Below, in pieces: positions 3,100 to 55,312 of a stretch of DNA of 64,000 nt. Made by a program: the position numbers and the translations under genes. This DNA is from Escherichia phage moskry. Where the stretch lies: sequence record MN850651.1; one strand, 5' to 3'. Each line of letters opens with the position of its first letter. The first letter of the stretch is position 1. The notes under the pieces are model-generated. The model was given only the letters and a program-made list of their open reading frames with translations. It had not been told where the DNA came from and ran no database searches.

Positions 3100-3139
3100 G
3101 ATAGGACTACTATAACATAGTCCTACCAAGATGTAAACT
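3100..3139 (-). promoter_or_regulatory. PeSL-like early promoter cassette
   Basis: Minus reading: GTTTACA, 17 nt, TATAGT; inverted repeat TAGGACTA/TAGTCCTA around -10; followed by leader CAAAACAAACGGAGAACAAAATG. Confidence 0.5.
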
Positions 3140-3348: not shown

Positions 3349-3528
3349 TCACATAATCTCGTTAACATACATTTGCAATTCGGTGTGGGCGTCAGCCATC
3401 TTTTTCATAGCTCTGTTAATGTCGATGTCTCCATCTTCGCAACCATGAGCATTTTCCCAATCAGATACCGCATTAGCGTACTCTTCAATCAAAAACATTA
3501 ACTTAGAAATTTTTTCTTTACGTGACAT
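3349..3528 (-). CDS. Small protein at the rI.-1 position
   Basis: ORF track starts at TTG 3597 inside the upstream cassette; ATG at 3528 is preceded by SD GAGGAG; 59 aa. Confidence 0.45.
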   Translation of the reverse strand: MSRKEKISKLMFLIEEYANAVSDWENAHGCEDGDIDINRAMKKMADAHTELQMYVNEIM

Positions 3529-3532
3529 AACG

Positions 3533-3585
3533 TTCTCCTCTAGTAAGTAAGGTTTACTATAACACAACCTGAGGAGAAGTAAACT
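3533..3585 (-). promoter_or_regulatory. PeSL-like cassette with SD-containing stem
   Basis: Minus reading: GTTTACT, 17 nt, TATAGT; arms TTCTCCTC/GAGGAGAA, the 3' arm being the SD of the ATG at 3528. Confidence 0.5.
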
Positions 3586-3595
3586 GATAGATGCC

Positions 3596-3622
3596 AAAAA
3601 GCCCCAACCATAAGGAAGGGGC
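3596..3622 (-). terminator. Intrinsic terminator (minus strand)
   Basis: Stem AGCCCC/GGGGCT with A-run on plus strand (U-run on the minus transcript), 3' of the stop of rI. Confidence 0.6.
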
Positions 3623-3629
3623 TAGTAAA

Positions 3630-3932
3630 TTAGATAGATGTAGGCTCTAATTTTATTTTCATGAACTCGGCAAATTGTCTGGCAGTTTTTATGCCTTGTT
3701 CATGACATTCAAATGCATCATCACAGGGGCTATTTTTGTAATGCTTTGCCATATACTTATAGAATTTTTCAGAATTCTCGACATTTTGAATTTCAAACAA
3801 AGTATATACGTTTTTAATCCCTGATTCCATAAAGTTATCAAAATATGGGTCAACATATGCAGTGCCAACAATAGGAGTTGTTGCTGCAAAAAACCCCAGC
3901 ATCGCCATGACAGCTATCGCTCTTAAGGCCAT
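3630..3932 (-). CDS. rI: Antiholin RI (lysis inhibition)
   Basis: 100 aa; ATG with SD AGGAGG; recalled T4 RI similarity (MAL..A..AMLG..., DP.FD.FMESGI, NSPC..FEC); N-terminal signal-anchor. Confidence 0.8.
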   Translation of the reverse strand: MALRAIAVMAMLGFFAATTPIVGTAYVDPYFDNFMESGIKNVYTLFEIQNVENSEKFYKYMAKHYKNSPCDDAFECHEQGIKTARQFAEFMKIKLEPTSI

Positions 3933-3944
3933 ATAGGCCTCCTG

Positions 3945-4157
3945 TTAATTTTGGCCAGTATTTATTTTTCGCCTTTGGACGGCCTTAACATCTGTGAGGT
4001 ATTTTTCCAGCTTGCGCTTGCGTGTATAATCAGCTTTAGAACCAGTTTGACGGATATCCTCGTTTAAATGAGAAATAGAATGTCCTAATTCTCTTCGGAT
4101 TTCATCCAATTGGGTTACAGTAAGATTACGAAGTTGTCTTTCGTTTAATTGCTGCAT
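3945..4157 (-). CDS. rI.1-like small basic protein
   Basis: 70 aa; ATG start; sits between rI and tk as in T4. Confidence 0.5.
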
Positions 4158-4184
4158 ATATACCTCTTGGTTAGATATTAGTAT

Positions 4185-4766
4185 TTATAACAACCCTGTC
4201 AAATCATTCCAATGCTTCCGGCATAATGACACATATCTATCGGTATCACCAATTTCAATTTGACTGCCATCTGTAATTGGAAGTCCGTCTTCCGTGACTC
4301 TAGCTACCATTGTGGCCTTTTTACCACAATGACAGACACCTTTAAGTTCAACAAGCTTATCAGCAATAGCCATTAATGCTTGAGAACCTTCAAATAGATT
4401 ACCTTTAAAATCTGTTCGTAGTCCATATGCCATTACCGGCACATTGTATACGTCAACAATACGACTAAGTTGATACACCTTTTCAGTAGTTAAGAACTGA
4501 GCTTCGTCAACAAATACACAGTGAATATCCTTTTGTGCTGCAGCCCATTTATAGAATTCAAAGATATCCATGTCTTTTGTAATTATATTGGCGTCCTGAC
4601 GAATACCAATACGAGAGACTATTTCACCTTTTGAATCGCGAGTATCAATAGCCGGTTTAAGAACTAATACACCCATGCCACGTTCTTTATAGTTATGTGC
4701 GGCAGTAAGTAATGAAGCAGACTTACCAGCGTTCATAGCGGCATATGTAAAAATTAAACTAGCCAT
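4185..4766 (-). CDS. tk: Thymidine kinase
   Basis: 193 aa; P-loop AMNAGKS; C-terminal CHCG..C zinc motif; same length and position as T4 tk. Confidence 0.9.
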   Translation of the reverse strand: MASLIFTYAAMNAGKSASLLTAAHNYKERGMGVLVLKPAIDTRDSKGEIVSRIGIRQDANIITKDMDIFEFYKWAAAQKDIHCVFVDEAQFLTTEKVYQLSRIVDVYNVPVMAYGLRTDFKGNLFEGSQALMAIADKLVELKGVCHCGKKATMVARVTEDGLPITDGSQIEIGDTDRYVSLCRKHWNDLTGLL

Positions 4767-4956
4767 AAGAGTCCTTAGTTAAATTTTCTAAATATGTTTC
4801 CAAATCATTTTCAGCTTTATCGATAGATTTTACTAATTCGTAATATGTTTCGGCATCTCCATAATCAGAAGATAATTCAAAAGACAAATCCTTTTCTAAA
4901 CTAATAATTTCACCAACTAAAAATAATATTTCGTTCTTTTGTTCGCGAGTAATCAT
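4759..4956 (-). CDS. Small acidic protein (tk.1 position)
   Basis: 65 aa; ATG start; shares an N-terminal REQKNEILFL-type motif with the next ORF. Confidence 0.45.
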   Translation of the reverse strand: MITREQKNEILFLVGEIISLEKDLSFELSSDYGDAETYYELVKSIDKAENDLETYLENLTKDSYG

Positions 4957-5144
4957 AAGGAATTTATATAATCAATGAGTTCTTGTTCTTTATTATCGAA
5001 TTCTTTAGAAAGTTCTTCGTACTCGTTTGCGCTAAAAGGACCGCATTCATTACAAACTTTTTCCAATTCGCTATTTTTATCCATAACTTCGTGGATAAGA
5101 GAAAAGAGTCTGTCTTTTTGTTCTTTACTTAAACTCATAACCAT
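4953..5144 (-). CDS. Small acidic protein, paralog of 4759..4956
   Basis: ORF track starts at TTG 5159; ATG at codon 6 (5144); SKEQKDRLFSLIHEV motif; CNEC pair. Confidence 0.45.
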   Translation of the reverse strand: MVMSLSKEQKDRLFSLIHEVMDKNSELEKVCNECGPFSANEYEELSKEFDNKEQELIDYINSL

Positions 5145-5347
5145 GTCACCTTTAAGCAATATTCTTCTACATGTTGTTTACGGCCTTTCTTATCAATAAA
5201 GGTATATTCAACGAATGTTCCGATGTAGTCTTTATCTACATCATGTGGACTATTAATTGGACATTTAGTACGACAAATGCGTTCCCATTGACGAATAATT
5301 ACTGCCTTATTCTTTGGATCGTATGGATGTGGATAATGTATATTCAT
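5135..5347 (-). CDS. Hypothetical small protein
   Basis: ATG at codon 6 (5347) abuts the stop of the macro-like gene; 70 aa; Cys-x3-Cys pair. Confidence 0.4.
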   Translation of the reverse strand: MNIHYPHPYDPKNKAVIIRQWERICRTKCPINSPHDVDKDYIGTFVEYTFIDKKGRKQHVEEYCLKVTWL

Positions 5348-5841
5348 AATAACGGTTCCCAATCAACAATCACAATTTCTAGTTTAGTAGAATACGTATC
5401 TAAAATCTCTTCGATGACATCCCAGTTTCCACCACCAATACCTGCGCCAATTCTTGGCATATAAATTACAGGCTTTGTTATCTTATTCTTTCCGAATTCA
5501 TTTAATTCTATTATACAATTCATTAAAGCAGAGTACTCAAAATTAGGTCCAGGCTCAAACTGCGTATAAAGATTAAAGCAATAAGCTTTATGGGTCTTAA
5601 AATATTTTTCATAAACCGAATAAGACCCGAGTTTAGACTCGTCTCCATATGCAGTTTGAAGTTTATCGGCTTCCAGAATTTTTGGATAAGCCTTTGCTAA
5701 TTGTCCTGCCACACCGGCGCCCATTGTATGAAAACAATTACACCCATGAGCAATATTATTACCTTTAGAAAACAGGGCGACAATATCGCCCTTGATATAG
5801 TTTTTAATCACTTGCTGCAAGTCCTCTATTATAAGAGTCAA
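5344..5841 (-). CDS. Macro-domain-like protein (possible ADP-ribose binding/hydrolase)
   Basis: Motifs NIAHGCNCFHTMGAGVAGQL and PRIGAGIGGGNW resemble macro-domain Gly-rich loops; start is TTG 5841 or GTG 5811, no ATG. Confidence 0.45.
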   Translation of the reverse strand: MTLIIEDLQQVIKNYIKGDIVALFSKGNNIAHGCNCFHTMGAGVAGQLAKAYPKILEADKLQTAYGDESKLGSYSVYEKYFKTHKAYCFNLYTQFEPGPNFEYSALMNCIIELNEFGKNKITKPVIYMPRIGAGIGGGNWDVIEEILDTYSTKLEIVIVDWEPLL

Positions 5842-6151
5842 CTAGACGGTCTACCATAGAATTGCATGCTGCCTTATCTTTAGGTTCCGCCACCGAGCAT
5901 TCTAATATTTGCCATTTTTTATAGTATCTTTTAATTAAGGTAGACGCCTTGAACCTACTAGACGCCCCATCTTTTTCTCCGTCTTTATACGCATATAACA
6001 ATTTTTGTGAAAAATCTACTTTACACTCTTGACTTTTACCACAATAATCAGACGCCGTTCTGTTTGTATACTCCGTTACATCAGTATATGTAGTATTAGC
6101 AAGAGCGTTAAATGAAACCAAGCCAACTATTAAAGCCAACATTTTGGTCAT
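5804..6151 (-). CDS. Secreted small protein with four Cys (same position and length as T4 vs, identity unverified)
   Basis: 115 aa; ATG start; N-terminal MTKMLALIVGLVSFNALA signal-like segment. Confidence 0.45.
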   Translation of the reverse strand: MTKMLALIVGLVSFNALANTTYTDVTEYTNRTASDYCGKSQECKVDFSQKLLYAYKDGEKDGASSRFKASTLIKRYYKKWQILECSVAEPKDKAACNSMVDRLVDSYNRGLAASD

Positions 6152-6690
6152 TCTTTTATTTCCAGTAGTTTATTTGATTTAAGGTAATTAGCCTTTTCTA
6201 GGACTTCAGAAGCATATTTACTTCCAGCACTCGTCTTCCATCCCGCATTATATGAGGATATAGCTTTTCTTATATCCCCGTTATGTATATTTAACCAATA
6301 AGAAAATTCTATATAAGCCCATCTGGCTGAATTAGACCGCTTAGATAGCATTTTCTTAATTTGGGCATCAGTCATATTGTAACCAAGCTGGTTAATTCTT
6401 GCCCTCATTGTTGGTAGATAATTTTGGAACATTCCATACGCATGGTGACCTTTCTTATCTTTAAGATTAATACCGGCAGATGATTCTTGCCATAGTATTG
6501 CGGCCATTATGTATCCAAGTCCTTTCTTATGCATATTTTCATGCGTTTTAAATTTTCCATCCTTAGAAAACTGTTCCCCAAACTGATAAGCATAATTCAA
6601 GTTATCGAGTTGGACATTACTAAAAGTATGCTCGGAGCTATGTGCTGATAATGAAAGAGCAAATAGACCAGCGAGTAGTGCTTTTCTCAT
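6148..6690 (-). CDS. Periplasmic lytic-transglycosylase (SLT)-like protein
   Basis: 180 aa; signal-like N-terminus; WQESSAG and YGMFQ motifs resemble the SLT catalytic-Glu region. Confidence 0.5.
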   Translation of the reverse strand: MRKALLAGLFALSLSAHSSEHTFSNVQLDNLNYAYQFGEQFSKDGKFKTHENMHKKGLGYIMAAILWQESSAGINLKDKKGHHAYGMFQNYLPTMRARINQLGYNMTDAQIKKMLSKRSNSARWAYIEFSYWLNIHNGDIRKAISSYNAGWKTSAGSKYASEVLEKANYLKSNKLLEIKE

Positions 6691-6698
6691 GTTTACCT

Positions 6699-7157
6699 CT
6701 AGATTTTAATCACTGCTTTAGAAGCTTTTCCTGGTAGTCGTTTACTGTTAATAATAGCCATTCTGCATTGAAGAGTCTTCATTTTGAATGCCGGATTTTC
6801 GCGACAAACTGTAAGTCCCAACCAAAGATTTCCATCAGTTATTTCTAAACGGCCTGGACGGTATTCGACACCTTCGACAAAATCTTCATCAACATCTGGA
6901 CGTGCCGGCATTGATAAAAATTCTGCAACTTCTTTAACATGATTTTTTACTTTACGAAATAATTCAAAAACGTAATTCTCATCTATTTCTCTCTGGATGG
7001 CACGATCTAAGAGATGTTGAGAATACTTGATATGAAAGCCTGGTAGTCCAAGAGACTTTGCAGCATCTTTTATACTGGCATTTATTTTGCGGAACTCCGT
7101 TTCAAAGATTCGACGGAGTTTATTACGGCGGATAAAAACTTCCGAATTGATAGTCAT
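6699..7157 (-). CDS. regB: Site-specific RNA endonuclease RegB
   Basis: 152 aa; ATG start; long identical stretches to recalled T4 RegB (MTIN.EVFIRRNKLRR, YSQHLLDRAIQREID, GVEYRPGRLEITDGNLWLG, LQCRMAIINS.RLPGKASKAVIK). Confidence 0.85.
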   Translation of the reverse strand: MTINSEVFIRRNKLRRIFETEFRKINASIKDAAKSLGLPGFHIKYSQHLLDRAIQREIDENYVFELFRKVKNHVKEVAEFLSMPARPDVDEDFVEGVEYRPGRLEITDGNLWLGLTVCRENPAFKMKTLQCRMAIINSKRLPGKASKAVIKI

Positions 7158-7163
7158 TTTGAT

Positions 7164-7215
7164 TTCTCCTCTAGTTGACAGGTCTATAGTAACACAACTA
7201 GAGGAGATGTAAACT
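7164..7215 (-). promoter_or_regulatory. PeSL-like cassette with SD-containing stem (upstream of regB)
   Basis: Minus reading: GTTTACA, 18 nt, TACTAT; 13-bp arms TCTCCTCTAGTTG/CAACTAGAGGAGA, the 3' arm being the regB SD. Confidence 0.5.
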
Positions 7216-7217
7216 GC

Positions 7218-7427
7218 TTATTCTTGGAATGGTGTGAGTTTTCCAGCTATCGAACAAATTTCTACCATTGCAGGATAAAACTCTTTCACTTGTTCAAGGC
7301 GCTGGACAGCGTACCGCATTTCGCCTTCTTCAAGACAAGCCACCTGGTCATCGAGCAAATATTTATGGTAACCAGTACAGGCTTCACTAATGATACGTTG
7401 GAATTCTTGCAAACTTTCAATTTTCAC
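7218..7427 (-). CDS. Hypothetical small protein
   Basis: 69 aa; apparent GTG start with SD GAGGA 9 nt upstream. Confidence 0.4.
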   Translation of the reverse strand: MKIESLQEFQRIISEACTGYHKYLLDDQVACLEEGEMRYAVQRLEQVKEFYPAMVEICSIAGKLTPFQE

Positions 7428-7693
7428 TAGTATTTTTCCTCAGGTCGAAATACTGCACGACACGCCCACATGCTGGCTTCTTTTAGATGTTGCTTAGCGT
7501 ACTTAAGAGCCTGCACTGCATCCATATCTTCTTTGGTTTGTTGCTCTGTTTCGTTTTCTTTCAAGATATATGCTTCTTCAATCAGAGCATCAAACAACAA
7601 TCCAAGACGGACTTCAGCATCTTTAATAGCGTTCACTTTACCGATTTTATCATCAGTATGCGGCTTGTAGCCTTTGATGTCTTCAATCGACAT
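7427..7693 (-). CDS. Hypothetical protein
   Basis: ORF track starts at TTG 7861; ATG at codon 57 (MSIEDIKG) fits the overlap with the upstream gene; 88 aa. Confidence 0.35.
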   Translation of the reverse strand: MSIEDIKGYKPHTDDKIGKVNAIKDAEVRLGLLFDALIEEAYILKENETEQQTKEDMDAVQALKYAKQHLKEASMWACRAVFRPEEKY

Positions 7694-7907
7694 AAGGAAT
7701 TTCCTCATCAGTGGCAAGGTCATATTCGACCAATTGGATAGGCTCATTAATACCATATCCACGTACAGTGATATCAGTTGTCGGATAGTTTCCAGTAATA
7801 TCACCCATTCTAAATGATTCAATGAATGATTGCTCGCCTGAGCAACTAAACCAGGCGGCAAAACATTTTAAAACATCTTCAGACCCTTCTATAATCAATT
7901 TAGCCAT
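7683..7907 (-). CDS. Hypothetical small protein
   Basis: 74 aa; ATG overlaps the stop of the GrcA-like gene. Confidence 0.4.
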   Translation of the reverse strand: MAKLIIEGSEDVLKCFAAWFSCSGEQSFIESFRMGDITGNYPTTDITVRGYGINEPIQLVEYDLATDEEIPYVD

Positions 7908-8269
7908 TATAGACTCTCAGTAAAGGTACGAGCGATAACGTCGCGCTGCTGTTCTGGAGTCAGAGAGTTAAAGCGAACTGCATAACCGGATACACGAATG
8001 GTCAGCTGCGGATATTTTTCCGGATGCTTAACTGCATCTTCCAGAGTTTCACGACGCAGAACATTAACGTTCAGGTGTTGACCACCTTCAATTTTAACTT
8101 TAGGTTGATGTTCAATTTCAATTTCACGGGCATTCAAACCGTAGAAAATTTCCGGGTCTACAATAGCGTCTTCTTTAAAAGTCTTAGAGACAATAATCCG
8201 GGCTTGAGTACCGTCTTCAAAATAAATAGTGCCTTTGTGTGTGCCTTCAAGAATTTGATATGCTTTCAT
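7907..8269 (-). CDS. grcA: Autonomous glycyl-radical cofactor (GrcA/YfiD)-like protein
   Basis: 120 aa; ATG with SD GAGG; C-terminal about 60 aa ([60 protein letters not shown]) matches recalled E. coli GrcA, including the RVSGYAV glycyl-radical motif. Confidence 0.8.
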
Positions 8270-8275
8270 ATAACC

Positions 8276-8584
8276 TCAATTAGAAAATAAATTTATCCAA
8301 GTTTTTTCTTTAATCAAAAATGGGTCGGAATTAAACGCCATTAAACTTTGAGTGATTAATCCCTTAAATGGCCCATCAATAAATTCCATTTTGAAATGTG
8401 GAATACTAGTCATCAACCGTGCATTAGGAGCAGTACAAAGAACCTGCTGCCCTGCGAACGGACCTTTAGTCAAACGATATCGTTTAGGTTTAAAATGGTA
8501 AATCTCGTAATTTTCTACAAGGGCCCTTTTATTGCATACTGGGCTGTTATAACAATACTCAAAAACTTCAATAGTGGTCATCAT
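8276..8584 (-). CDS. Hypothetical protein
   Basis: ORF 8276..8632; ATG pair at codons 17-18 adjoins the stop of the upstream gene; about 102 aa. Confidence 0.4.
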   Translation of the reverse strand: MMTTIEVFEYCYNSPVCNKRALVENYEIYHFKPKRYRLTKGPFAGQQVLCTAPNARLMTSIPHFKMEFIDGPFKGLITQSLMAFNSDPFLIKEKTWINLFSN

Positions 8585-9120
8585 TGCATTCCAATCACAA
8601 AAAATTGAGGACGAGCAATACCGCCGTTGCAATATTTACTTTTGCAACAGTGTTGGACTGTTTTAATATGGATGTCGTAAATCTTATCCATATCAGGAGC
8701 TTTAATAGGCTCGTCAATTATATACAGAATACGAGAAAGCGTTAATCCACGGAATTTATGTCCTTCATTACCAATAAAACTACGGACAGAATCAGTAAAT
8801 AAACGGAATCGAATATCATCGCTAGAATAACGAGAAAATTCTTTTTCAATGTTGCCAGCAGAAATTTTAGCATAAGCTGAAGTATTAGAAAGAACAATAA
8901 CTGTTCCACCATCATACAGCCAATTAGCAGCAAAATTAGTTACTGCGGTCGATTTACCTGATTGTCTGCCGCCGTCTAAACGAAGTGTACAGTACTGCTT
9001 GAGTACGTCTTCGAATGGTGGGATATAACCGTTCTTACAAATTTCTTCTACTCTAGCATCAGAATGGTGTGTAAAAGCATTCATCAGGGATAGATAAGGA
9101 CCAGTTAAAAATGTTCTCAT
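8581..9120 (-). CDS. P-loop NTPase or kinase-like protein
   Basis: 179 aa; ATG start; Walker A LDGGRQSGKST. Confidence 0.5.
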   Translation of the reverse strand: MRTFLTGPYLSLMNAFTHHSDARVEEICKNGYIPPFEDVLKQYCTLRLDGGRQSGKSTAVTNFAANWLYDGGTVIVLSNTSAYAKISAGNIEKEFSRYSSDDIRFRLFTDSVRSFIGNEGHKFRGLTLSRILYIIDEPIKAPDMDKIYDIHIKTVQHCCKSKYCNGGIARPQFFVIGMQ

Positions 9121-9288
9121 TTAGTTTCTCTTAAGGTTGGGGCCATTCCATGGCGCATGAATTGTCCATTTCTGTATTTACCCATTACCGCACTTGGGCA
9201 CGACCTTATTACAGGTTGGAAAAGGTACATCACTCAGAGGACTCGACGTTCATGAGGAGAGGTTGCGTTTCCCTTTATTAGGCAAGAA

Positions 9289-9618
9289 TTATACTCTAGG
9301 CTTTTGAGCTTGTTTGGTATTGGATTCCCATGCGGCTTTGGTAATTTTGTTAGCGGCATAACCAAAGGCATTAGATAGAACACCTTTAGAGTTGAATACA
9401 TCCAATCCAATAAGTACACCGGCTGTGTTAAATTTAGGAGCAAAGTACGCATTAGTTTTAGAAAGAGCTTTTTTCAATTCAGGGTCTTGAACCAAGCTAT
9501 CAAAAACACCTTTACTATTTACTTTATATGTTACTTTGGGATTTTTACCTTCTTCGATAGCAGCTTTCTGTTCCGCAGATAATGTAACTTCAGTGATAAA
9601 CTCCTGATATGTTTTCAT
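9289..9618 (-). CDS. Internal-protein-like (capsid targeting sequence) protein
   Basis: 109 aa; N-terminus MKTYQEFITE matches the recalled T4 internal-protein CTS (MKTYQEFIAE) with an L/I-x-E cleavage context. Confidence 0.6.
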   Translation of the reverse strand: MKTYQEFITEVTLSAEQKAAIEEGKNPKVTYKVNSKGVFDSLVQDPELKKALSKTNAYFAPKFNTAGVLIGLDVFNSKGVLSNAFGYAANKITKAAWESNTKQAQKPRV

Positions 9619-9643
9619 TTTGTTCCTATTGTTTTAATTTATG

Positions 9644-9958
9644 TTATTCTTTAGGGAAGTTTTTAGAGTATGCGTCATAAAGTTTATTACCGATGCGACG
9701 GAAGACTTTAGCTGCAAAACGGTTTTCAGGGTTTTTAATCATGATTTGCATCATGTAAGTTCCTGCATCCGAAAGAGCTTCTTCATAGTACCCATTAATT
9801 TCTTTAAGAGTCCTACGTTTACCACCAGGACCATCAACAGTAATTTTCCATTTACCTGTAGAAGTGCGGCTCGGTGGCTCAACTTGTTCAATCCAAATAT
9901 AACCACCTTCAACGCGTTGGTTGGCGGATTCTGCAATAAATTCTTTATACGTTTTCAT
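9644..9958 (-). CDS. Internal-protein-like (CTS) protein
   Basis: 104 aa; N-terminus MKTYKEFIAE; basic body. Confidence 0.6.
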   Translation of the reverse strand: MKTYKEFIAESANQRVEGGYIWIEQVEPPSRTSTGKWKITVDGPGGKRRTLKEINGYYEEALSDAGTYMMQIMIKNPENRFAAKVFRRIGNKLYDAYSKNFPKE

Positions 9959-9979
9959 TTTTGTTTCCTTGTTTGTTTT

Positions 9980-10019
9980 GATAGAGTAATTATACCATAT
10001 TAATACTTAAGCGTAAACA
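9980..10019 (-). promoter_or_regulatory. Early promoter cassette (PeSL-like)
   Basis: Minus reading: GTTTAC, about 18 nt, TATAAT; directly 5' of the CTS gene starting at 9958. Confidence 0.5.
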
Positions 10020-10021
10020 AT

Positions 10022-10282
10022 TTAAGCTTTACCGCCAGAAATAATTCCGAAGTTGTTAAAATCATATCCAATATCGTCAACATCTACTTTAGGACTTGCT
10101 ACAACATAAGCAATTTCACTACGTTTTGCATAGGTGTTGATTTCTTTACCATCGCCACCTAAGAAAGAATACCCATTACGTTTTAATGAGCCAAAGTCTT
10201 CCGCATCACCAATGAAAGCTTTAACTTTAAATTTAGGGTCTTTGGCATCTGCTTCATTGATAAATTCTTGATACATTTTCAT
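10022..10282 (-). CDS. Internal-protein-like (CTS) protein
   Basis: 86 aa; N-terminus MKMYQEFINE. Confidence 0.6.
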   Translation of the reverse strand: MKMYQEFINEADAKDPKFKVKAFIGDAEDFGSLKRNGYSFLGGDGKEINTYAKRSEIAYVVASPKVDVDDIGYDFNNFGIISGGKA

Positions 10283-10288
10283 TTTTCC

Positions 10289-10702
10289 TTAGTAAATTGA
10301 TTTACCATAGTATTTGTACCAAGTCGGACGTTGAGCAATTTTTTCATCTAAGCGTGCTTGACTTATCGCAATGGACGCTTCGGACGGGACATAATTATTA
10401 CGAAATTCGGCAGGGATGTCGGAAATATCCTGGACTGTCGTGTCCTTGATTTTGAAACCACGTTTCAAGCATTCAGCGATTAGCTCGATTTGTCGTAAAC
10501 GTAAAAATTCGAGTTTGTCGTAAAAGAATGTTACGTGACCTGTGCCTAAGATAAATGTTGGAGAGATTTTAAAATCCTTTACACGTTTACCGTTTTGAAC
10601 ATGTTTACGGACTGCACCAAATACGCGTGGTAATTCACGATACTCAGCCATAAGATGTTGGTCGGCCAGTTCAGAAACAAGTGTTAAATTGATACGGGTC
10701 AT
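10289..10702 (-). CDS. denV: Endonuclease V (pyrimidine-dimer DNA glycosylase)
   Basis: ATG at codon 5 of the ORF track; 137 aa; near-identical to recalled T4 DenV ([35 protein letters not shown]...). Confidence 0.9.
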
Positions 10703-10707
10703 AATTT

Positions 10708-10760
10708 CCTCCAAGTAGTTGATGAATGTATAGTATCAAAACCCTTGGAGGAAGTAAACA
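10708..10760 (-). promoter_or_regulatory. PeSL-like cassette with SD-containing stem (upstream of denV)
   Basis: Minus reading: GTTTAC, TACTAT-like -10; arms CCTCCAAG/CTTGGAGG, the latter being the denV SD. Confidence 0.5.
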
Positions 10761-11042
10761 CTATTTTTCTGAAGCGCCTGAAATATATTTTTCAAGACGT
10801 TGTTTCATTAGCGAGCCGTTCTTAGCGATTTCTTCCGGTTTATCGCACATACGTAACAAGGCTTCAAGCTTAGCGATATCGCTAGTACGTTCAAATTTGC
10901 GAGTATCTATCTTACTAGCAAGTTCAGAAATACGTGCTAGTAGACTTTCGGCTTCAACCAAAGCTGCACCTAGCTTAGTTGCAAATGTGTCAGTAGCTTC
11001 GTTAAGAATAGATTCTGATAAAAATTCACTATATGTTTTCAT
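10761..11042 (-). CDS. Internal-protein-like (CTS) protein
   Basis: ATG at codon 6 ([10 protein letters not shown]); 93 aa; 4-nt overlap with the 3' end of gene e. Confidence 0.55.
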
Positions 11043-11527
11043 ATATACGCTTTCCAAGTTCCTGTTTTAAATGTTGAGATTACACGTTTCGCGCGATTAG
11101 GTGTCTGACGATACCATTTAGATTGGGCTAGATTTACTGCCGCTTCATCCCAACGTTTCTGATGAAGCATACGAAGAGAATTAGTAAAACCGGCGACGCC
11201 TGCTACACCCATTTGGAAGACCATATTGACCAATGCACAACGACGAACCGCATCTAAAGAATCATATACCGGTTTAAGTTTAGCATTACCCAAGATTCCG
11301 CGAACGGCTTTATCAACGTCTTCATTAAATAGCTTTTCAGCCTCATCAAGGGTAATTGTACCGTTGCATTTACGTCCGATCATTCTGTCAAGTTCAGCTT
11401 TAGCTACGGCTAAAGACGGGTTCTTTGTTACTAAATGGCCTATGCCAATCGTCCAAAAGCCTTCGGTGTCTTTGTATAAAGTCAGTCTAAGACCTTCGTC
11501 ATTACGAAGCATTTCAAATATATTCAT
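11039..11527 (-). CDS. e: Endolysin (T4 lysozyme)
   Basis: ATG at codon 5 (MNIFEMLR); 162 aa; about 80 percent identical to recalled T4 lysozyme, including DEGLRL.YKDTEG..TIGIGHL and catalytic Glu11/Asp20. Confidence 0.95.
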
Positions 11528-11528
11528 A

Positions 11529-11554
11529 ATACCTCCCACGTTTATAGGAGGTAT
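11529..11554 (-). promoter_or_regulatory. RBS-sequestering hairpin upstream of e
   Basis: Arms ATACCTCC/GGAGGTAT; on the mRNA the 3' arm is the e SD; loop contains TATAAAC, close to a late-promoter core. Confidence 0.5.
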
Positions 11555-11561
11555 TTATTAC

Positions 11562-12734: not shown

Positions 12735-13420
12735 TACCAGCCTTCCATAGGGAATTCTAGATAAACTTGAGCGTTGACACGAATTTCATTGGTAATCTTT
12801 TTAACTCGGTCTGTATTACGAGATACACGTCCGAACCAACGCCATCCATTACTAATTGCACGAGAACCAGTGTGCCATGTTTGCCAATCAAACTGAAGAA
12901 GAGTACGGTCCGGAGCTTCCCATTTCTCTAGTTCACCTTTTTCAATTTTTTCGAGGACTTCTTTGTGCCACTGACGATAGATAAGTTCGCCATCAGGAAT
13001 CTGACTGAACTCTGCAGTTCCTGTTGCAAAATGAGTAGGACACACATCAGCGTTAACAAGACCAAGAATGTGTTCAGACAAATAGCGAGGATTGTCATAG
13101 TCAGGTTGTCCTGCAGTAATAAAGTGTTGACCAACCGGAATATCCGGGCGTGGTACATCGTCATGGTGATAACCTGGGATAGCAGGGTACCAACCGGGCA
13201 TCAGCATGTGGACTCGTGAATCAAATACAACCTGGTCGGTGTTCCAATCATCTGGCAAGTTCATGATGAAGCTGCGAGTAATAGGACCGCCGTTATTATA
13301 AGCAAATTCTAAACTACAGTTGAAGAACATAGGCTCGTTTTTAATCTGGTCGTTTTTAATCGCATGAGCAAAACCACCTACTGCACGAGCTTGACTATTA
13401 AACACTTTAGAACTATTCAT
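12734..13420 (-). CDS. Hypothetical protein (His/Asp-rich, possible metal-dependent enzyme)
   Basis: 228 aa; ATG start; YHHDDVP and THFATG motifs; no confident family. Confidence 0.45.
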   Translation of the reverse strand: MNSSKVFNSQARAVGGFAHAIKNDQIKNEPMFFNCSLEFAYNNGGPITRSFIMNLPDDWNTDQVVFDSRVHMLMPGWYPAIPGYHHDDVPRPDIPVGQHFITAGQPDYDNPRYLSEHILGLVNADVCPTHFATGTAEFSQIPDGELIYRQWHKEVLEKIEKGELEKWEAPDRTLLQFDWQTWHTGSRAISNGWRWFGRVSRNTDRVKKITNEIRVNAQVYLEFPMEGW

Positions 13421-16639: not shown

Positions 16640-17210
16640 ATTCTCTACATTCCATAATAAATTGCTCAAGGATTAAATTGTTAGTGAAATTAGGACTAAC
16701 AACCATAGTTTCATAAAGCGCATCAATAGCACTTAAAGCATCAACTCTCTTAAGCAAAGGCTTGCCTTCATACATAGTTTCAGAATCGACGATTAAAGTG
16801 AAGTAGTATTTTTTATTATTGACCAGAACTTCTGTATCAATATAAAACATGTTAGACCTTAAAAGCTTGTCTCTAAAACCATAATAATCTTTAGAGCATT
16901 CGCTGATATATTCCCATTCAGTGTTTAAACAACAAACAGACCATGTAGGAGCAACGAACTCAGTGAATCTAATATCATGGTCTGCAACTAGTTTAGCAAT
17001 AGCTCCGATATCATGAATCATAATACCTGGGGCTAATAAAGATTTTCTGCTATGGCTAGCCGTTTTCTCAGTAGTCTCATAAGAAGACGACCAGTACCAT
17101 TTACGTCCAGTTGCAACATATCGTAATGAATCAACTAAAGACGTAGGTGGATTTACCTTATCTCGGAACTCTTCGAACATTGAGTCAATATCATTATTTT
17201 GGTTTCGCAT
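16608..17210 (-). CDS. Hypothetical protein
   Basis: ORF track starts at TTG 17231; ATG at codon 8 follows SD AAGGAG; 200 aa. Confidence 0.4.
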   Translation of the reverse strand: MRNQNNDIDSMFEEFRDKVNPPTSLVDSLRYVATGRKWYWSSSYETTEKTASHSRKSLLAPGIMIHDIGAIAKLVADHDIRFTEFVAPTWSVCCLNTEWEYISECSKDYYGFRDKLLRSNMFYIDTEVLVNNKKYYFTLIVDSETMYEGKPLLKRVDALSAIDALYETMVVSPNFTNNLILEQFIMECREYVKANPVHAN

Positions 17211-17229
17211 GTTAACTCCTTTATTATCC

Positions 17230-17251
17230 AAAAGGAGGACCGGAGTCCTCC
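17230..17251 (-). terminator. Intrinsic terminator (minus strand)
   Basis: Stem GGAGGAC/GTCCTCC, loop CGGA, A-run on plus strand (U-run on the minus transcript), 3' of gene 17260..17853. Confidence 0.55.
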
Positions 17252-17259
17252 GTATTATT

Positions 17260-17853
17260 TTATTTCAAAGAGTTAATATATTCTTGTACATCTGCAGAAG
17301 TGGTTTCGACACCAGCTGGAGTGCCATTGAACGTTTCAACACGAGTCAGAGTGTCTTCGATATCAACCTTAGTCAGTGCAGCGATTTCAATTACATCATC
17401 AGCCGTAGAGATACCAAGGGCATTAGCTGCTCGAGTTTCACGAATGTATTCGAGTTTGATTGCCAGATTCTGACGAGCATCGTCAAGTTCAACCACCTTA
17501 CGAGCAATTTCAATTCGCATAGCGGCATACCCGTCAGCTTTTGTATTAAGTTGTTCGGCAGTTCGACGATACAGAAGACCAAGCTTAGCATGCATGGTAA
17601 CATCTTGTCCTTCGGCCAGGAGCTTACGAATTTCACGTTCCTTAGAAGCGGCTTGCTTGTTCTTTTCATTAACAAGTTCGCGAATACGTTTTTCTTCATT
17701 AATAGATTTAACAGAAGCCGTTTTTAGTTCTTTGATTTGGGTAATCAACTTATCTGCAGCTGCGTTATACTGTTCTTCGACAGTCAGATTTTTAGCCATA
17801 GCAGTACCCAGTTTAGTGCGGATGAATTCAACAAGTTTCTTCAGTGTGTTCAT
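17260..17853 (-). CDS. Coiled-coil protein (possibly PspA/IM30-like)
   Basis: ATG at codon 6 (MNTLKKL); about 197 aa; predominantly helical heptad-like sequence; family assignment tentative. Confidence 0.4.
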
Positions 17854-18430: not shown

Positions 18431-18736
18431 TTAATTTTTCCAACTTAACAACTTGTAGTGTCCTTCATTCATACGTGGTTTATCCCAAGAAATACTAATA
18501 TATGATTCACTGTCAATAGAAATCGCCGGGTTTTTCTCTACCGTAAGACCTTCACTTTCCAGCCATTCAATAGTATTTGCGCATAAATCAGAAGAACACC
18601 TCATCGGGAACCGGCAAGATTTTTCACCTTTAGCTGCAGTGTTATACATCTTTTCTAAAATACGCTTTTGCACGTTTTTAAAAATAGTTTCAGCAGATTC
18701 TTCAGATTTTTTATTCAGTTCAGTGTAAAGACTCAT
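18431..18736 (-). CDS. Hypothetical protein
   Basis: 101 aa; ATG start; Cys-rich centre (CRFPMRCSSDLC). Confidence 0.45.
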   Translation of the reverse strand: MSLYTELNKKSEESAETIFKNVQKRILEKMYNTAAKGEKSCRFPMRCSSDLCANTIEWLESEGLTVEKNPAISIDSESYISISWDKPRMNEGHYKLLSWKN

Positions 18737-18755
18737 AATATTCTCCTCATGTTTT

Positions 18756-18794
18756 GATGGGTCTATAGTAACACATCTAGGGAAGAAGTAAACA
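18756..18794 (-). promoter_or_regulatory. PeSL-like early promoter cassette
   Basis: Minus reading: GTTTAC, spacer, TACTAT-like -10. Confidence 0.45.
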
Positions 18795-21622: not shown

Positions 21623-21808
21623 TTACTCACCTTTTGCAATTTTATCCATAACGATAGCGATTAAGCCGATTAGAAATGCTACTACCAATGAGATAGAATT
21701 TTCTGTTGTTGTCAGTAGTCCACAAATGAATCCTACAAACATCGAAAAACTAAAAGCCATTGAAGCAATTACTACAGCAACATTACGAATCAGTTCAGCG
21801 CGTTTCAT
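21623..21808 (-). CDS. Small membrane protein
   Basis: ORF track start at 21829 is the ATG inside the cassette leader; ATG at codon 8 follows SD GGAG; 61 aa with one transmembrane helix. Confidence 0.4.
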   Translation of the reverse strand: MKRAELIRNVAVVIASMAFSFSMFVGFICGLLTTTENSISLVVAFLIGLIAIVMDKIAKGE

Positions 21809-21836
21809 TTTATTTCTCCATTTACTCATTTGTTTT

Positions 21837-21876
21837 GATAGGACTACTATAACATAGTCCTATCAGCATGTAAACT
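21837..21876 (-). promoter_or_regulatory. PeSL-like early promoter cassette (perfect copy)
   Basis: Minus reading: GTTTACA, 17 nt, TATAGT; perfect 10-bp inverted repeat GATAGGACTA/TAGTCCTATC; leader CAAAACAAATGAGTAAATGGAGAAATAAAATG. Confidence 0.55.
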
Positions 21877-21878
21877 AC

Positions 21879-22166
21879 TTACAGAAGAGTTTTTGCAATA
21901 ATTTTAAGCTGAGCTACAGAAATATGCTTAGCTTTAAACAGTGCAGTCTCTTCAGCCGGAGAGATAACAATAGTAGCGCCATCTTTCTTAGCAGACCATC
22001 CATCCCCTAAGTAAACAGTACCTTTTACTTCTTCGCCGTCAACCAGGCCAATCATTGGTTTACCCTCACGTCCTTTATTTGCTTTAATAACTTCGGAAGT
22101 AAGGGTTGCTTCGGTTAGAGTAGAAACATTAGCATCAGGTGATATAAATTCTTTATAGGTTTTCAT
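21879..22166 (-). CDS. Internal protein I-like (CTS) protein
   Basis: 95 aa; N-terminus MKTYKEFIS; adjacent to 57B as ipI is in T4; length matches recalled T4 IPI. Confidence 0.55.
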   Translation of the reverse strand: MKTYKEFISPDANVSTLTEATLTSEVIKANKGREGKPMIGLVDGEEVKGTVYLGDGWSAKKDGATIVISPAEETALFKAKHISVAQLKIIAKTLL

Positions 22167-54983: not shown

Positions 54984-55251
54984 ATTTCTGTGCAATTTTG
55001 ATGTAAGTTTTCAAAATATTTTGCCAATTAGGCATACCTTCTTGGATATATGCTGGAGAACCGTCTTTGTTTTTGAATGATGCAAGTTTATCAGTGGCCC
55101 AATAACCTTTAGCTCGAGCTTCAGAATCAACTTTCATCCATACTTTGTTGAAGGCATTACCATTAACTTTTGCACCATATTTTTCTACTAACTTAACTGC
55201 TTCAGCTTCCAGAACTTTTAAAGTATCTCGTAAGAAACGTGCTTTAGTCAT
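54982..55251 (-). CDS. Small basic protein on the opposite strand between genes 23 and 24
   Basis: 89 aa; ATG in the same leader (GTCATTTTGTTTACTCCTCTG on plus strand) as the ORF at 18362; SD GAGGAG. Confidence 0.5.
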   Translation of the reverse strand: MTKARFLRDTLKVLEAEAVKLVEKYGAKVNGNAFNKVWMKVDSEARAKGYWATDKLASFKNKDGSPAYIQEGMPNWQNILKTYIKIAQK

Positions 55252-55260
55252 TTTGTTTAC

Positions 55261-55312
55261 TCCTCTGTAGTTGATAAGTCTATAGTATCATATACCAAAT
55301 ACGTTGTAAACA
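55261..55312 (-). promoter_or_regulatory. PeSL-like early promoter cassette inside the late module
   Basis: Near-duplicate of 18371..18422; minus reading GTTTACA, spacer, TACTAT-like -10. Confidence 0.5.

Follow-up and report, generated by a model that had tools for sequence, protein, structure and literature searches.

Shine-Dalgarno-masking hairpins in the early promoter regions of regB and denV of Escherichia phage moskry and other T-even phages

Inverted repeats upstream of four genes

A stretch of 64,000 nucleotides of Escherichia phage moskry (sequence record MN850651.1), in the following called the window, was analysed for hairpins in which the Shine-Dalgarno (SD) sequence of a gene pairs with sequence further upstream, at regB and denV with the spacer of the early promoter. 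The part from 3.3 to 11.8 kb shows 97-98% identity to RB69-like (Mosigvirus) T-even phages. Its genes lie on the minus strand. By comparison with the annotated T4 and an annotated, near-identical genome, the order in the upper part is nudE, e, a small open reading frame (ORF), denV and three internal-protein genes. They are followed by vs.8 to vs.3, regB, vs.1, vs, tk.4 to tk, rI.1, rI and an ORF of 59 codons (3349-3528). This last ORF had been taken for the rI.-1 position in an earlier note on this DNA; it is a homologue of RB69 mobD.2a (96.6% identity). The same note had described inverted repeats with the SD as downstream arm at regB, denV, e and this ORF. A repeat search recovered all four at the places given there, each 100% complementary (8 bp at the mobD.2a-like ORF, 13 at regB, 10 at denV, 9 at e). 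As the four genes are encoded on the minus strand, the arm with the higher coordinates is the upstream (5') arm. The arm with the lower coordinates is the SD, 3-7 nt ahead of each ATG. The features of the early genes are as follows:

7209-7214, minus strand: -35 GTTTAC of the regB early promoter; -10 TACTAT at 7191-7186, 17-nt spacer, extended TG
7195-7207, minus strand: anti-SD (5') arm of regB, TCTCCTCTAGTTG, within the promoter spacer, 1 nt past the -35
7165-7177, minus strand: 3' arm of regB, CAACTAGAGGAGA, with the SD GAGGAG; ATG 7157-7155, ORF 6699-7157
10754-10759, minus strand: -35 GTTTAC of the denV early promoter; -10 TACTAT at 10735-10730
10744-10753, minus strand: anti-SD (5') arm of denV, TTCCTCCAAG, beginning immediately past the -35
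10706-10715, minus strand: 3' arm of denV, CTTGGAGGAA, with the SD GGAGG; ATG 10702-10700, ORF 10289-10702
3571-3584, minus strand: -35 GTTTAC (3584-3579) of the mobD.2a-like ORF, directly followed by the anti-SD arm TTCTCCTC (3578-3571); -10 TATAGT at 3561-3556
3533-3540, minus strand: 3' arm of the mobD.2a-like ORF, GAGGAGAA, identical with its SD; ATG 3528-3526, ORF 3349-3528
3596-3622, minus strand: terminator-like hairpin GCCCC...GGGGC with TTTTT, past rI and directly 5' of the mobD.2a-like promoter (sequence read directly)

A common anatomy was found at the early promoters of regB, denV and the mobD.2a-like ORF, all three of the type GTTTAC-N17/18-TAnnnT. The anti-SD arm begins 0-1 nt after the -35 GTTTAC and is followed by the remaining spacer (17-18 nt in total) and the -10 TAnnnT. 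About 7 nt further on a leader of 21-22 nt starts, which contains the 3' arm as SD and leads to the ATG. The arms are separated by 17 nt at regB (TCTCCTCTAGTTG / CAACTAGAGGAGA, 13 bp), 28 nt at denV (TTCCTCCAAG / CTTGGAGGAA, 10 bp) and 30 nt at the mobD.2a-like ORF (TTCTCCTC / GAGGAGAA, 8 bp). For T4 the denV promoter was detected by primer extension (PMC1702504). An upstream arm located 5' of the -10, as claimed before for all four genes, was confirmed for these three, where the arm follows the -35, but not for e, where it overlaps the 3' end of a late-promoter-like element (AATAAATA).

All 83 starts of the window consisting of SD, ATG and ORF were scored by the longest helix covering the SD. 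The four sites hold ranks 1, 2, 3 and 5. Rank 4, an ATG at 17210, was rejected as a fifth candidate, because its pairing crosses a terminator and has no promoter. In this region (17210-17275, minus strand) the complement of the SD AAGGAGTTAA is TTAACTCTTT, located where the preceding ORF ends, and the terminator hairpin GGAGGACTCCGGTCCTCC followed by TTTT lies between the arms with no intervening promoter; the match is probably unrelated or a product of chance.

Predicted folding of the two transcript classes

The predicted folding of read-through RNA was compared with dinucleotide shuffles (n=200 per site), a check which the earlier note had suggested. It turned out clearly for regB (z -3.43, 0/200 shuffles as good), e (z -3.25, 0/200) and denV (z -2.24, 3/200). 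For the site at 3533-3578 no such difference was obtained (z -1.01, 37/200), and the helix test of the census, which used mononucleotide shuffles, gave p 0.18. Leaders beginning at the predicted starts of the own promoters were no more structured than shuffles (z 0 to +1.4). The probability that the SD is unpaired was 0.00 in RNA from the -35 or from 100 or 200 nt further up, compared with 0.45-0.57 in RNA from the predicted early starts. For eight other early promoters in the window it mostly stays at 0.2-0.7.

Comparable results were obtained for the cost of opening positions -15 to +3, calculated in kcal/mol for the long (read-through) and the short (own-promoter) RNA, with T4 e as calibration:

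Window, mobD.2a-like ORF: 11.1 long, 4.0 short
Window, denV: 12.3-13.4 long, 2.5 short
Window, regB: 14.4-16.5 long, 3.0 short
Window, e: 17.4-17.5 long, 3.6 short
T4, e (calibration): 15.5-16.3 long, 2.1 short
T4, regB: 18.0-18.4 long, 4.9 short
T4, denV: 9.2-11.7 long, 3.2 short
T4, ipII, ipIII and mobD.5: 2-5 long, 2-4 short

In the earlier note it had been proposed that RNA from the local promoter is open for translation and that read-through RNA hides the SD. In all computations this behaviour is predicted for regB, denV and e; the mobD.2a-like site remains at chance level and has a terminator upstream.

A chance match of purine-rich SDs with pyrimidine-rich spacers would be the simplest explanation of such pairings, and the values of the mobD.2a-like site agree with it. 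With the shuffle results of regB, e and denV, four of the top five ranks among 83 starts and covariation that none of 500 shuffles reached (see below), it is very improbable for the sites taken together; moreover, the window's other early-promoter spacers are not rich in CTCC. Chance is excluded for regB, denV and e and remains for the mobD.2a-like site only.

This site is the weak member in other respects, too. The terminator-like hairpin at 3596-3622 was missed by a simple terminator scan because its loop exceeds 8 nt; as it lies directly upstream of the promoter, little read-through is expected there. The site resembles a regB-type cassette that has decayed. Of 161 phage records with relatives of the ORF, almost all reach 90% identity or more and only seven are distant homologues; the one distant homologue examined overlaps the upstream gene and is without promoter.

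Comparison of regB and denV leaders

For comparison, regB and denV loci were gathered from viral and metagenome contigs; 36 unique leaders were available for regB and 35 unique, analysable ones for denV. For regB the mean probability of an unpaired SD was 0.02 (long RNA), 0.69 (short RNA) and 0.25 (after shuffling of the upstream part); the corresponding values for denV were 0.05, 0.52 and 0.23. Among these approximately 70 leaders the partner of the SD occupies one of two places, -24 to -29, just past the -35, or the interval from the -10 to the predicted start (about -4 to +1); it was never clearly inside the transcribed leader. By this promoter geometry, and with predicted starts, the proximal transcript lacks the 5' strand.

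At least 11 distinct regB stems were found in which pairing is maintained. Fully compensated stems among lineages are TCTCCTCTAGTTG, TTTTCCTCTTGACTG, TTTCTCCTCTTTATG, TCTCCTGTAAG, ATCTCCTTTTAGT, ATCCTCATTTG and ATCCTCTCTG, each with the exact complement. The mean helix measured 11.4 bp within one leader and 7.0 bp when arms of separate lineages were combined. Since a MAFFT alignment of the regB leaders misregistered the 3' arms, anchored helix counts and a covariance model were used instead. The model, with seven leaders as seed, was run on 40 loci and resulted in an alignment of 47 distinct sequences. In this alignment 96% of the cells were paired, compared with 78% after shuffling and 46-64% with slid partners; nine of ten pairs vary on both sides, with a covariation score of 0.40 versus 0.12 and 0/500 shuffles matching. 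These absolute figures are biased toward structure, as the alignment was fitted to it and includes a few antisense matches. Despite this, the shuffled and slid controls stay clearly separated. What the analysis shows is that the helices are present, with their computed energetics, how they are conserved and covary, and where they lie with respect to the promoter elements; the SD-masking hairpin of regB and denV is a real, selected element.

Leaders preceded by a terminator behaved differently. In the distant regB of L018, in denV of the jumbo phages L041, L043, L047 and L049 and in T4 mobD.5 the long RNA is as open as the short one (2.5-6 kcal/mol) and no sequestration was detected. In the window it is the terminator-preceded mobD.2a-like site that has the weakest helix. 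The absence of the hairpin behind terminators fits a function aimed at read-through RNA.

Several points weigh against a sense-RNA element directed at read-through transcripts. Besides the bias of the fitted alignment and the mobD.2a-like site, which alone is not significant, the SD is still about 75% paired when the upstream part is shuffled, so base composition supplies part of the pairing. The correlation of terminators with hairpin absence is confounded with phylogenetic distance. The stems are almost all Watson-Crick, and G-U pairs are no commoner than A-C in regB and denV; thus the sequence alone cannot prove that selection acts on the sense RNA and not on the DNA, and the asymmetry of G-U versus A-C favours sense RNA for e only. 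Furthermore, in the spacer arrangement only 4-13 nt separate the arm from the end of the upstream ORF's stop codon, which sometimes overlaps the -35 (TAGTTTAC). A terminating ribosome covers about 9-10 nt past the stop and might open the outer SD pairs.

The last point leads to translational coupling as another explanation. A ribosome finishing the upstream ORF would melt the outer pairs between SD and anti-SD, and translation would be proportional to that of the upstream ORF instead of being silenced. In the second arrangement, and also in several leaders of the spacer type, stop codon and arm are 15-32 nt apart, which is not in line with such a coupling. In addition, T4 e has the same short geometry from stop to arm, yet it is reported to be 100-fold repressed in early read-through RNA (PMC3014915). 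We therefore regard coupling as unlikely.

Cassettes, stem-loops and other early promoters

The T4 denV leader (L002, 8354-8414) and the regB leader of the window (7155-7214) are the same cassette, with 88% mean column identity over the seven-leader alignment (A3). Their shared 10-bp stem differs by one clean compensatory swap from G:C to C:G. In L021, L022, L025 and L054 both regB and denV carry the cassette, i.e. two copies each as direct repeats 2.1-2.5 kb apart, which could permit excision or exchange of the type proposed for promoter-associated stem-loops (PeSLs). In the close relatives L011 and L012 (around 5943-6003) the sequence upstream of the regB promoter differs, and the 5' arm of L012 has two mismatches (CTCTGGATG versus CTCTTTATG); an exchange junction may lie near or within the stem. 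Two further leaders of the same cassette family were found in the window on the minus strand at 18732-18793 and 55249-55311, where model R1 scores 39 and 37 bits, respectively. In the former the anti-SD is decayed (TTCTTCC versus GAGGAGAA), in the latter the 5' arm is substituted, and in both the SD is without stable sequestration.

PeSL cassettes of T4-like phages (Arbiol 2010; Comeau 2014) resemble these leaders. They consist of an early promoter, a stem-loop that either lies between -35 and -10 or covers the -10, and an SD at the 3' end, and they are repeated and exchanged between loci. The early-gene sites of the window likewise have a strong sigma-70-like early promoter followed by SD and start codon, and the cassette found at denV of T4 recurs at regB of L022, L025 and L113. 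The stem-loops of PeSLs were read as terminators or attenuators and as recombination sites. In contrast, the 5' arm lies here in the spacer, while the SD, 17-30 nt further on, forms the 3' arm, with long loops and no T-run. At the SD hairpins the terminator scan was negative, the loops have 17-30 nt and an A-rich sequence instead of a T-run follows the 3' arms.

Hence it has to be considered that the hairpins are PeSLs acting at the DNA level or as terminators or attenuators for modular recombination, with the SD included incidentally. The stem-loops between -35 and -10 or over the -10 and the SD at the cassette 3' end described for PeSLs of T4-like phages (PMC2839356; PMC4122927), the transfer of one cassette between denV and regB, the nearly exclusive Watson-Crick pairs and five other early promoters of the window, whose -10-spanning hairpins are clear of the SD, would agree with this. 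Nevertheless we consider it improbable. Loops of 17-30 nt are unfavourable to cruciform extrusion, and neither the A-rich flanks nor the terminator scan point to termination. Two very different arrangements have only the pairing of the SD with something upstream of the start in common, the helix is kept through at least 11 different sequences, and it is missing where a real terminator precedes the promoter. Mobility of the cassette is compatible with a translational function and does not replace it.

The five promoters mentioned have their -35 at 3138, 14054, 15349, 21875 and 22230 on the minus strand. Repeats of 7-10 bp, for example GATAGGACTA...TAGTCCTATC, flank the -10 and exclude the SD, and three of the five share nearly the same cassette TAGGACTATGTTATAGTAGTCCTATCAAAAC. 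By their sequence these hairpins look like PeSL-type stem-loops. Behind the promoter at 21875 (21808-21975, minus strand) the SD is predicted to pair in 9/10 positions with TTATCTCTCC, about 90 nt upstream in the preceding ORF. This pairing encloses the promoter hairpin, and the probability of an unpaired SD is 0.0 with 100-200 nt of upstream sequence, as far as such long-range predictions, which are unreliable, can be used.

The occurrence of masked SDs was surveyed for 16 early promoter-gene pairs in about 61 kb of T4 and for 14 pairs in the window. In T4 full sequestration in long RNA was obtained for the SDs of regB, denV, modB, motB.2 and imm.1 (5/16), and partial sequestration for two more, those of 55.4 and 55.6. 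Three of the 14 pairs of the window are sequestered. The SDs of motB.2, imm.1 and modB are predicted to be paired in read-through RNA and open in RNA from the own promoter. The T4 ATGs (L120, 1-50000) are located at 13130 (modB), 8161 (motB.2), 27013 (imm.1), 41170 (55.4) and 41646 (55.6); at modB a 13-bp helix is formed, whose 5' arm begins in the -10.

Gene e and a neighbouring gap

The following features were found upstream of e:

11552-11559, minus strand: late-promoter-like element AATAAATA (a single mismatch to TATAAATA), of which the final 4 nt are shared with the 5' arm
11544-11555, minus strand: anti-SD (5') arm of e, AATACCTCCTAT, running to about the expected late start
11528-11539, minus strand: 3' arm of e, GTGGGAGGTATT, with the SD, abutting the ATG at 11527-11525; ORF 11039-11527

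The repeat core (11528-11536 and 11547-11555; AATACCTCC / GGAGGTATT) comprises 9 bp. The helix grows to 12 pairs including G-U, with an AAAC loop, and ends at the ATG; a degenerate second copy of the late promoter, TATAAACG, is located at the arm-loop junction or in the loop. In the e leaders of T4-like relatives the same hairpin pattern occurs, with an ATAAATA core immediately 5' of the 5' arm. The comparison of e with T4 lysozyme regulation drawn in the earlier note was correct: the site is the already published T4 lysozyme hairpin, an orthologous element. Rfam gave only a sub-threshold chance match to NsiR4 on this hairpin.

A gap of about 170 nt (9121-9288) separates vs.8 from the last internal-protein gene. 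It contains no ORF matching the annotation of the near-identical genome and no Rfam match was obtained. A short unannotated plus-strand ORF, the 5' end of a minus-strand ORF and a TATAAT-like hexamer near the upstream end were noticed; the gap may be what is left of a gene, or a small RNA may be located there.

Discussion

The hairpins are probably cis-acting RNA elements that make translation depend on the start of the transcript. For regB and denV, and weakly for the mobD.2a-like gene, the early promoter belonging to the gene itself, of the sigma-70 type, has a pyrimidine-rich anti-SD in its spacer, directly past the -35. RNA from this promoter would start about 25 nt downstream of the anti-SD, and its leader of 21-22 nt would be unstructured and translated. 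RNA from upstream promoters, i.e. delayed-early or late read-through, would include the anti-SD, form a helix of 10-13 bp over the SD and block ribosome binding. According to the folding models, silencing of read-through transcripts is the most likely effect of the element. Where the transcripts begin, whether and how much read-through RNA is made, and how translation responds are inferred here.

If so, the three proteins would be made from immediate-early transcripts only, in a short pulse, and their expression would be uncoupled from the amount of upstream transcription. Early promoters are switched off within minutes, and for this reason the pulse of RegB and DenV would be short. A short pulse fits the stated need for tight control of the RegB nuclease. 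No strict MotA-box middle-promoter pattern was found between 3000 and 16000; upstream early promoters and the e late promoter are the likely sources of read-through RNA. Gene e uses the same device with a late promoter.

The hairpin of the T4 lysozyme gene e (McPheeters et al. 1986, reviewed in PMC3014915) is the closest known system. It is experimentally documented: its 5' strand lies upstream of the proximal start, the long RNA is silent and the proximal RNA is translated, and lysozyme synthesis from early RNA is reported to be 100-fold lower (PMC3014915). The e leaders of relatives have already been compared in Figure 5 of the same review. The same logic of sequestration and internal promoter is known in the T4 family for soc, 49, I-TevI/II/III, segB and the Aeh1 gene mobE. 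In the window the SD and/or AUG likewise lie in a stable helix of the long RNA (8-13 bp, 11-17.5 kcal/mol), comparable with T4 e. The genes known to be under control of such a hairpin and an internal promoter are all late genes (PMC2988022). Of the four sites e fits in this respect, with the late-promoter-like element AATAAATA at 11559-11552. In contrast, regB, denV and the mobD.2a-like gene have a proximal promoter of the early sigma-70 type with the anti-SD between -35 and -10, and they are outside the published lists of e, soc, 49, I-TevI/II/III, segB and mobE. They therefore represent a variant and not plain members of this class. With an early instead of a late proximal promoter the timing would be reversed: expression would be limited to the first minutes and not postponed to late times.

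No early-promoter version of the mechanism was found in the literature within reach of our search, which did not extend to older print papers. In the 2010 PeSL paper (PMC2839356) the words 'ribosome', 'translation' and 'hairpin' are absent, and the parts of the 2010 and 2014 papers considered here do not mention pairing of the SD. The principle itself is established; we rate as new the use of a known late-gene mechanism by early genes, with a conserved and testable element. Possible stem-loops before ipIII, ipII, denV and orf61.9 (regB) were reportedly noted by Valerie et al. in Nucleic Acids Res. in 1986, which could lower the novelty. The statement of the earlier note that several early genes use the logic of e is supported by the models for regB and denV, and at the mobD.2a-like site, taken alone, the signal does not exceed chance.

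The regB SD is also the site of RegB autoregulation, which acts on the same GGAG-containing sequence and likewise confines RegB synthesis to early times. It differs in that RegB cleaves in trans, whereas the hairpin is a cis element on another transcript class. All four SDs contain GGAG, so an effect on RNA stability was considered as well: pairing would hide the intercistronic GGAG from RegB, perhaps also from RNase E, and spare the polycistronic read-through RNA for the expression of downstream genes, with the translational block being secondary. RegB cuts the GGAG of early SDs and is inhibited by secondary structure, and 16 RegB-resistant T4 RNAs with structured GGAG were described (PMC3014915; PMC1702504). 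However, the resistance of the T4 denV GGAG was traced to a missing A-rich 3' element and not to structure (PMC1702504). The window sites are, by eye, a poor match to the published RegB consensus GGAGRAYARAA, with AAAUCAA, GAAAUUA and AACGUUA following the GGAG, and e, a late gene outside the mRNA targets of RegB, uses the same device. As the main function, protection from RegB seems hardly probable to us; shielding of the GGAG could possibly coexist with translational silencing as an added effect.

Early promoters of T-even phages may often carry a built-in translational insulator, i.e. an anti-SD in the spacer or between the -10 and the start; we consider the case for this generalization evenly balanced. 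If it is true, promoter, leader and gene would form a cassette expressed only from its own promoter, whatever the upstream transcription, and mobile PeSL cassettes would take the insulator along. Enzymes such as DenV and the host-toxic RegB and ModB would belong to a class of strictly immediate-early proteins. The masking hairpins would explain why some early proteins of T-even phages appear in a brief pulse though their genes are later transcribed in long read-through RNAs. They would add a purely cis-encoded layer to the distinction between immediate-early and delayed-early expression and give the widespread promoter-associated stem-loops a post-transcriptional role. For annotation, an anti-SD between the -35 and the start would mark a gene expressed from its own promoter only, and for engineered phages it would offer a compact natural design to shield genes from read-through.

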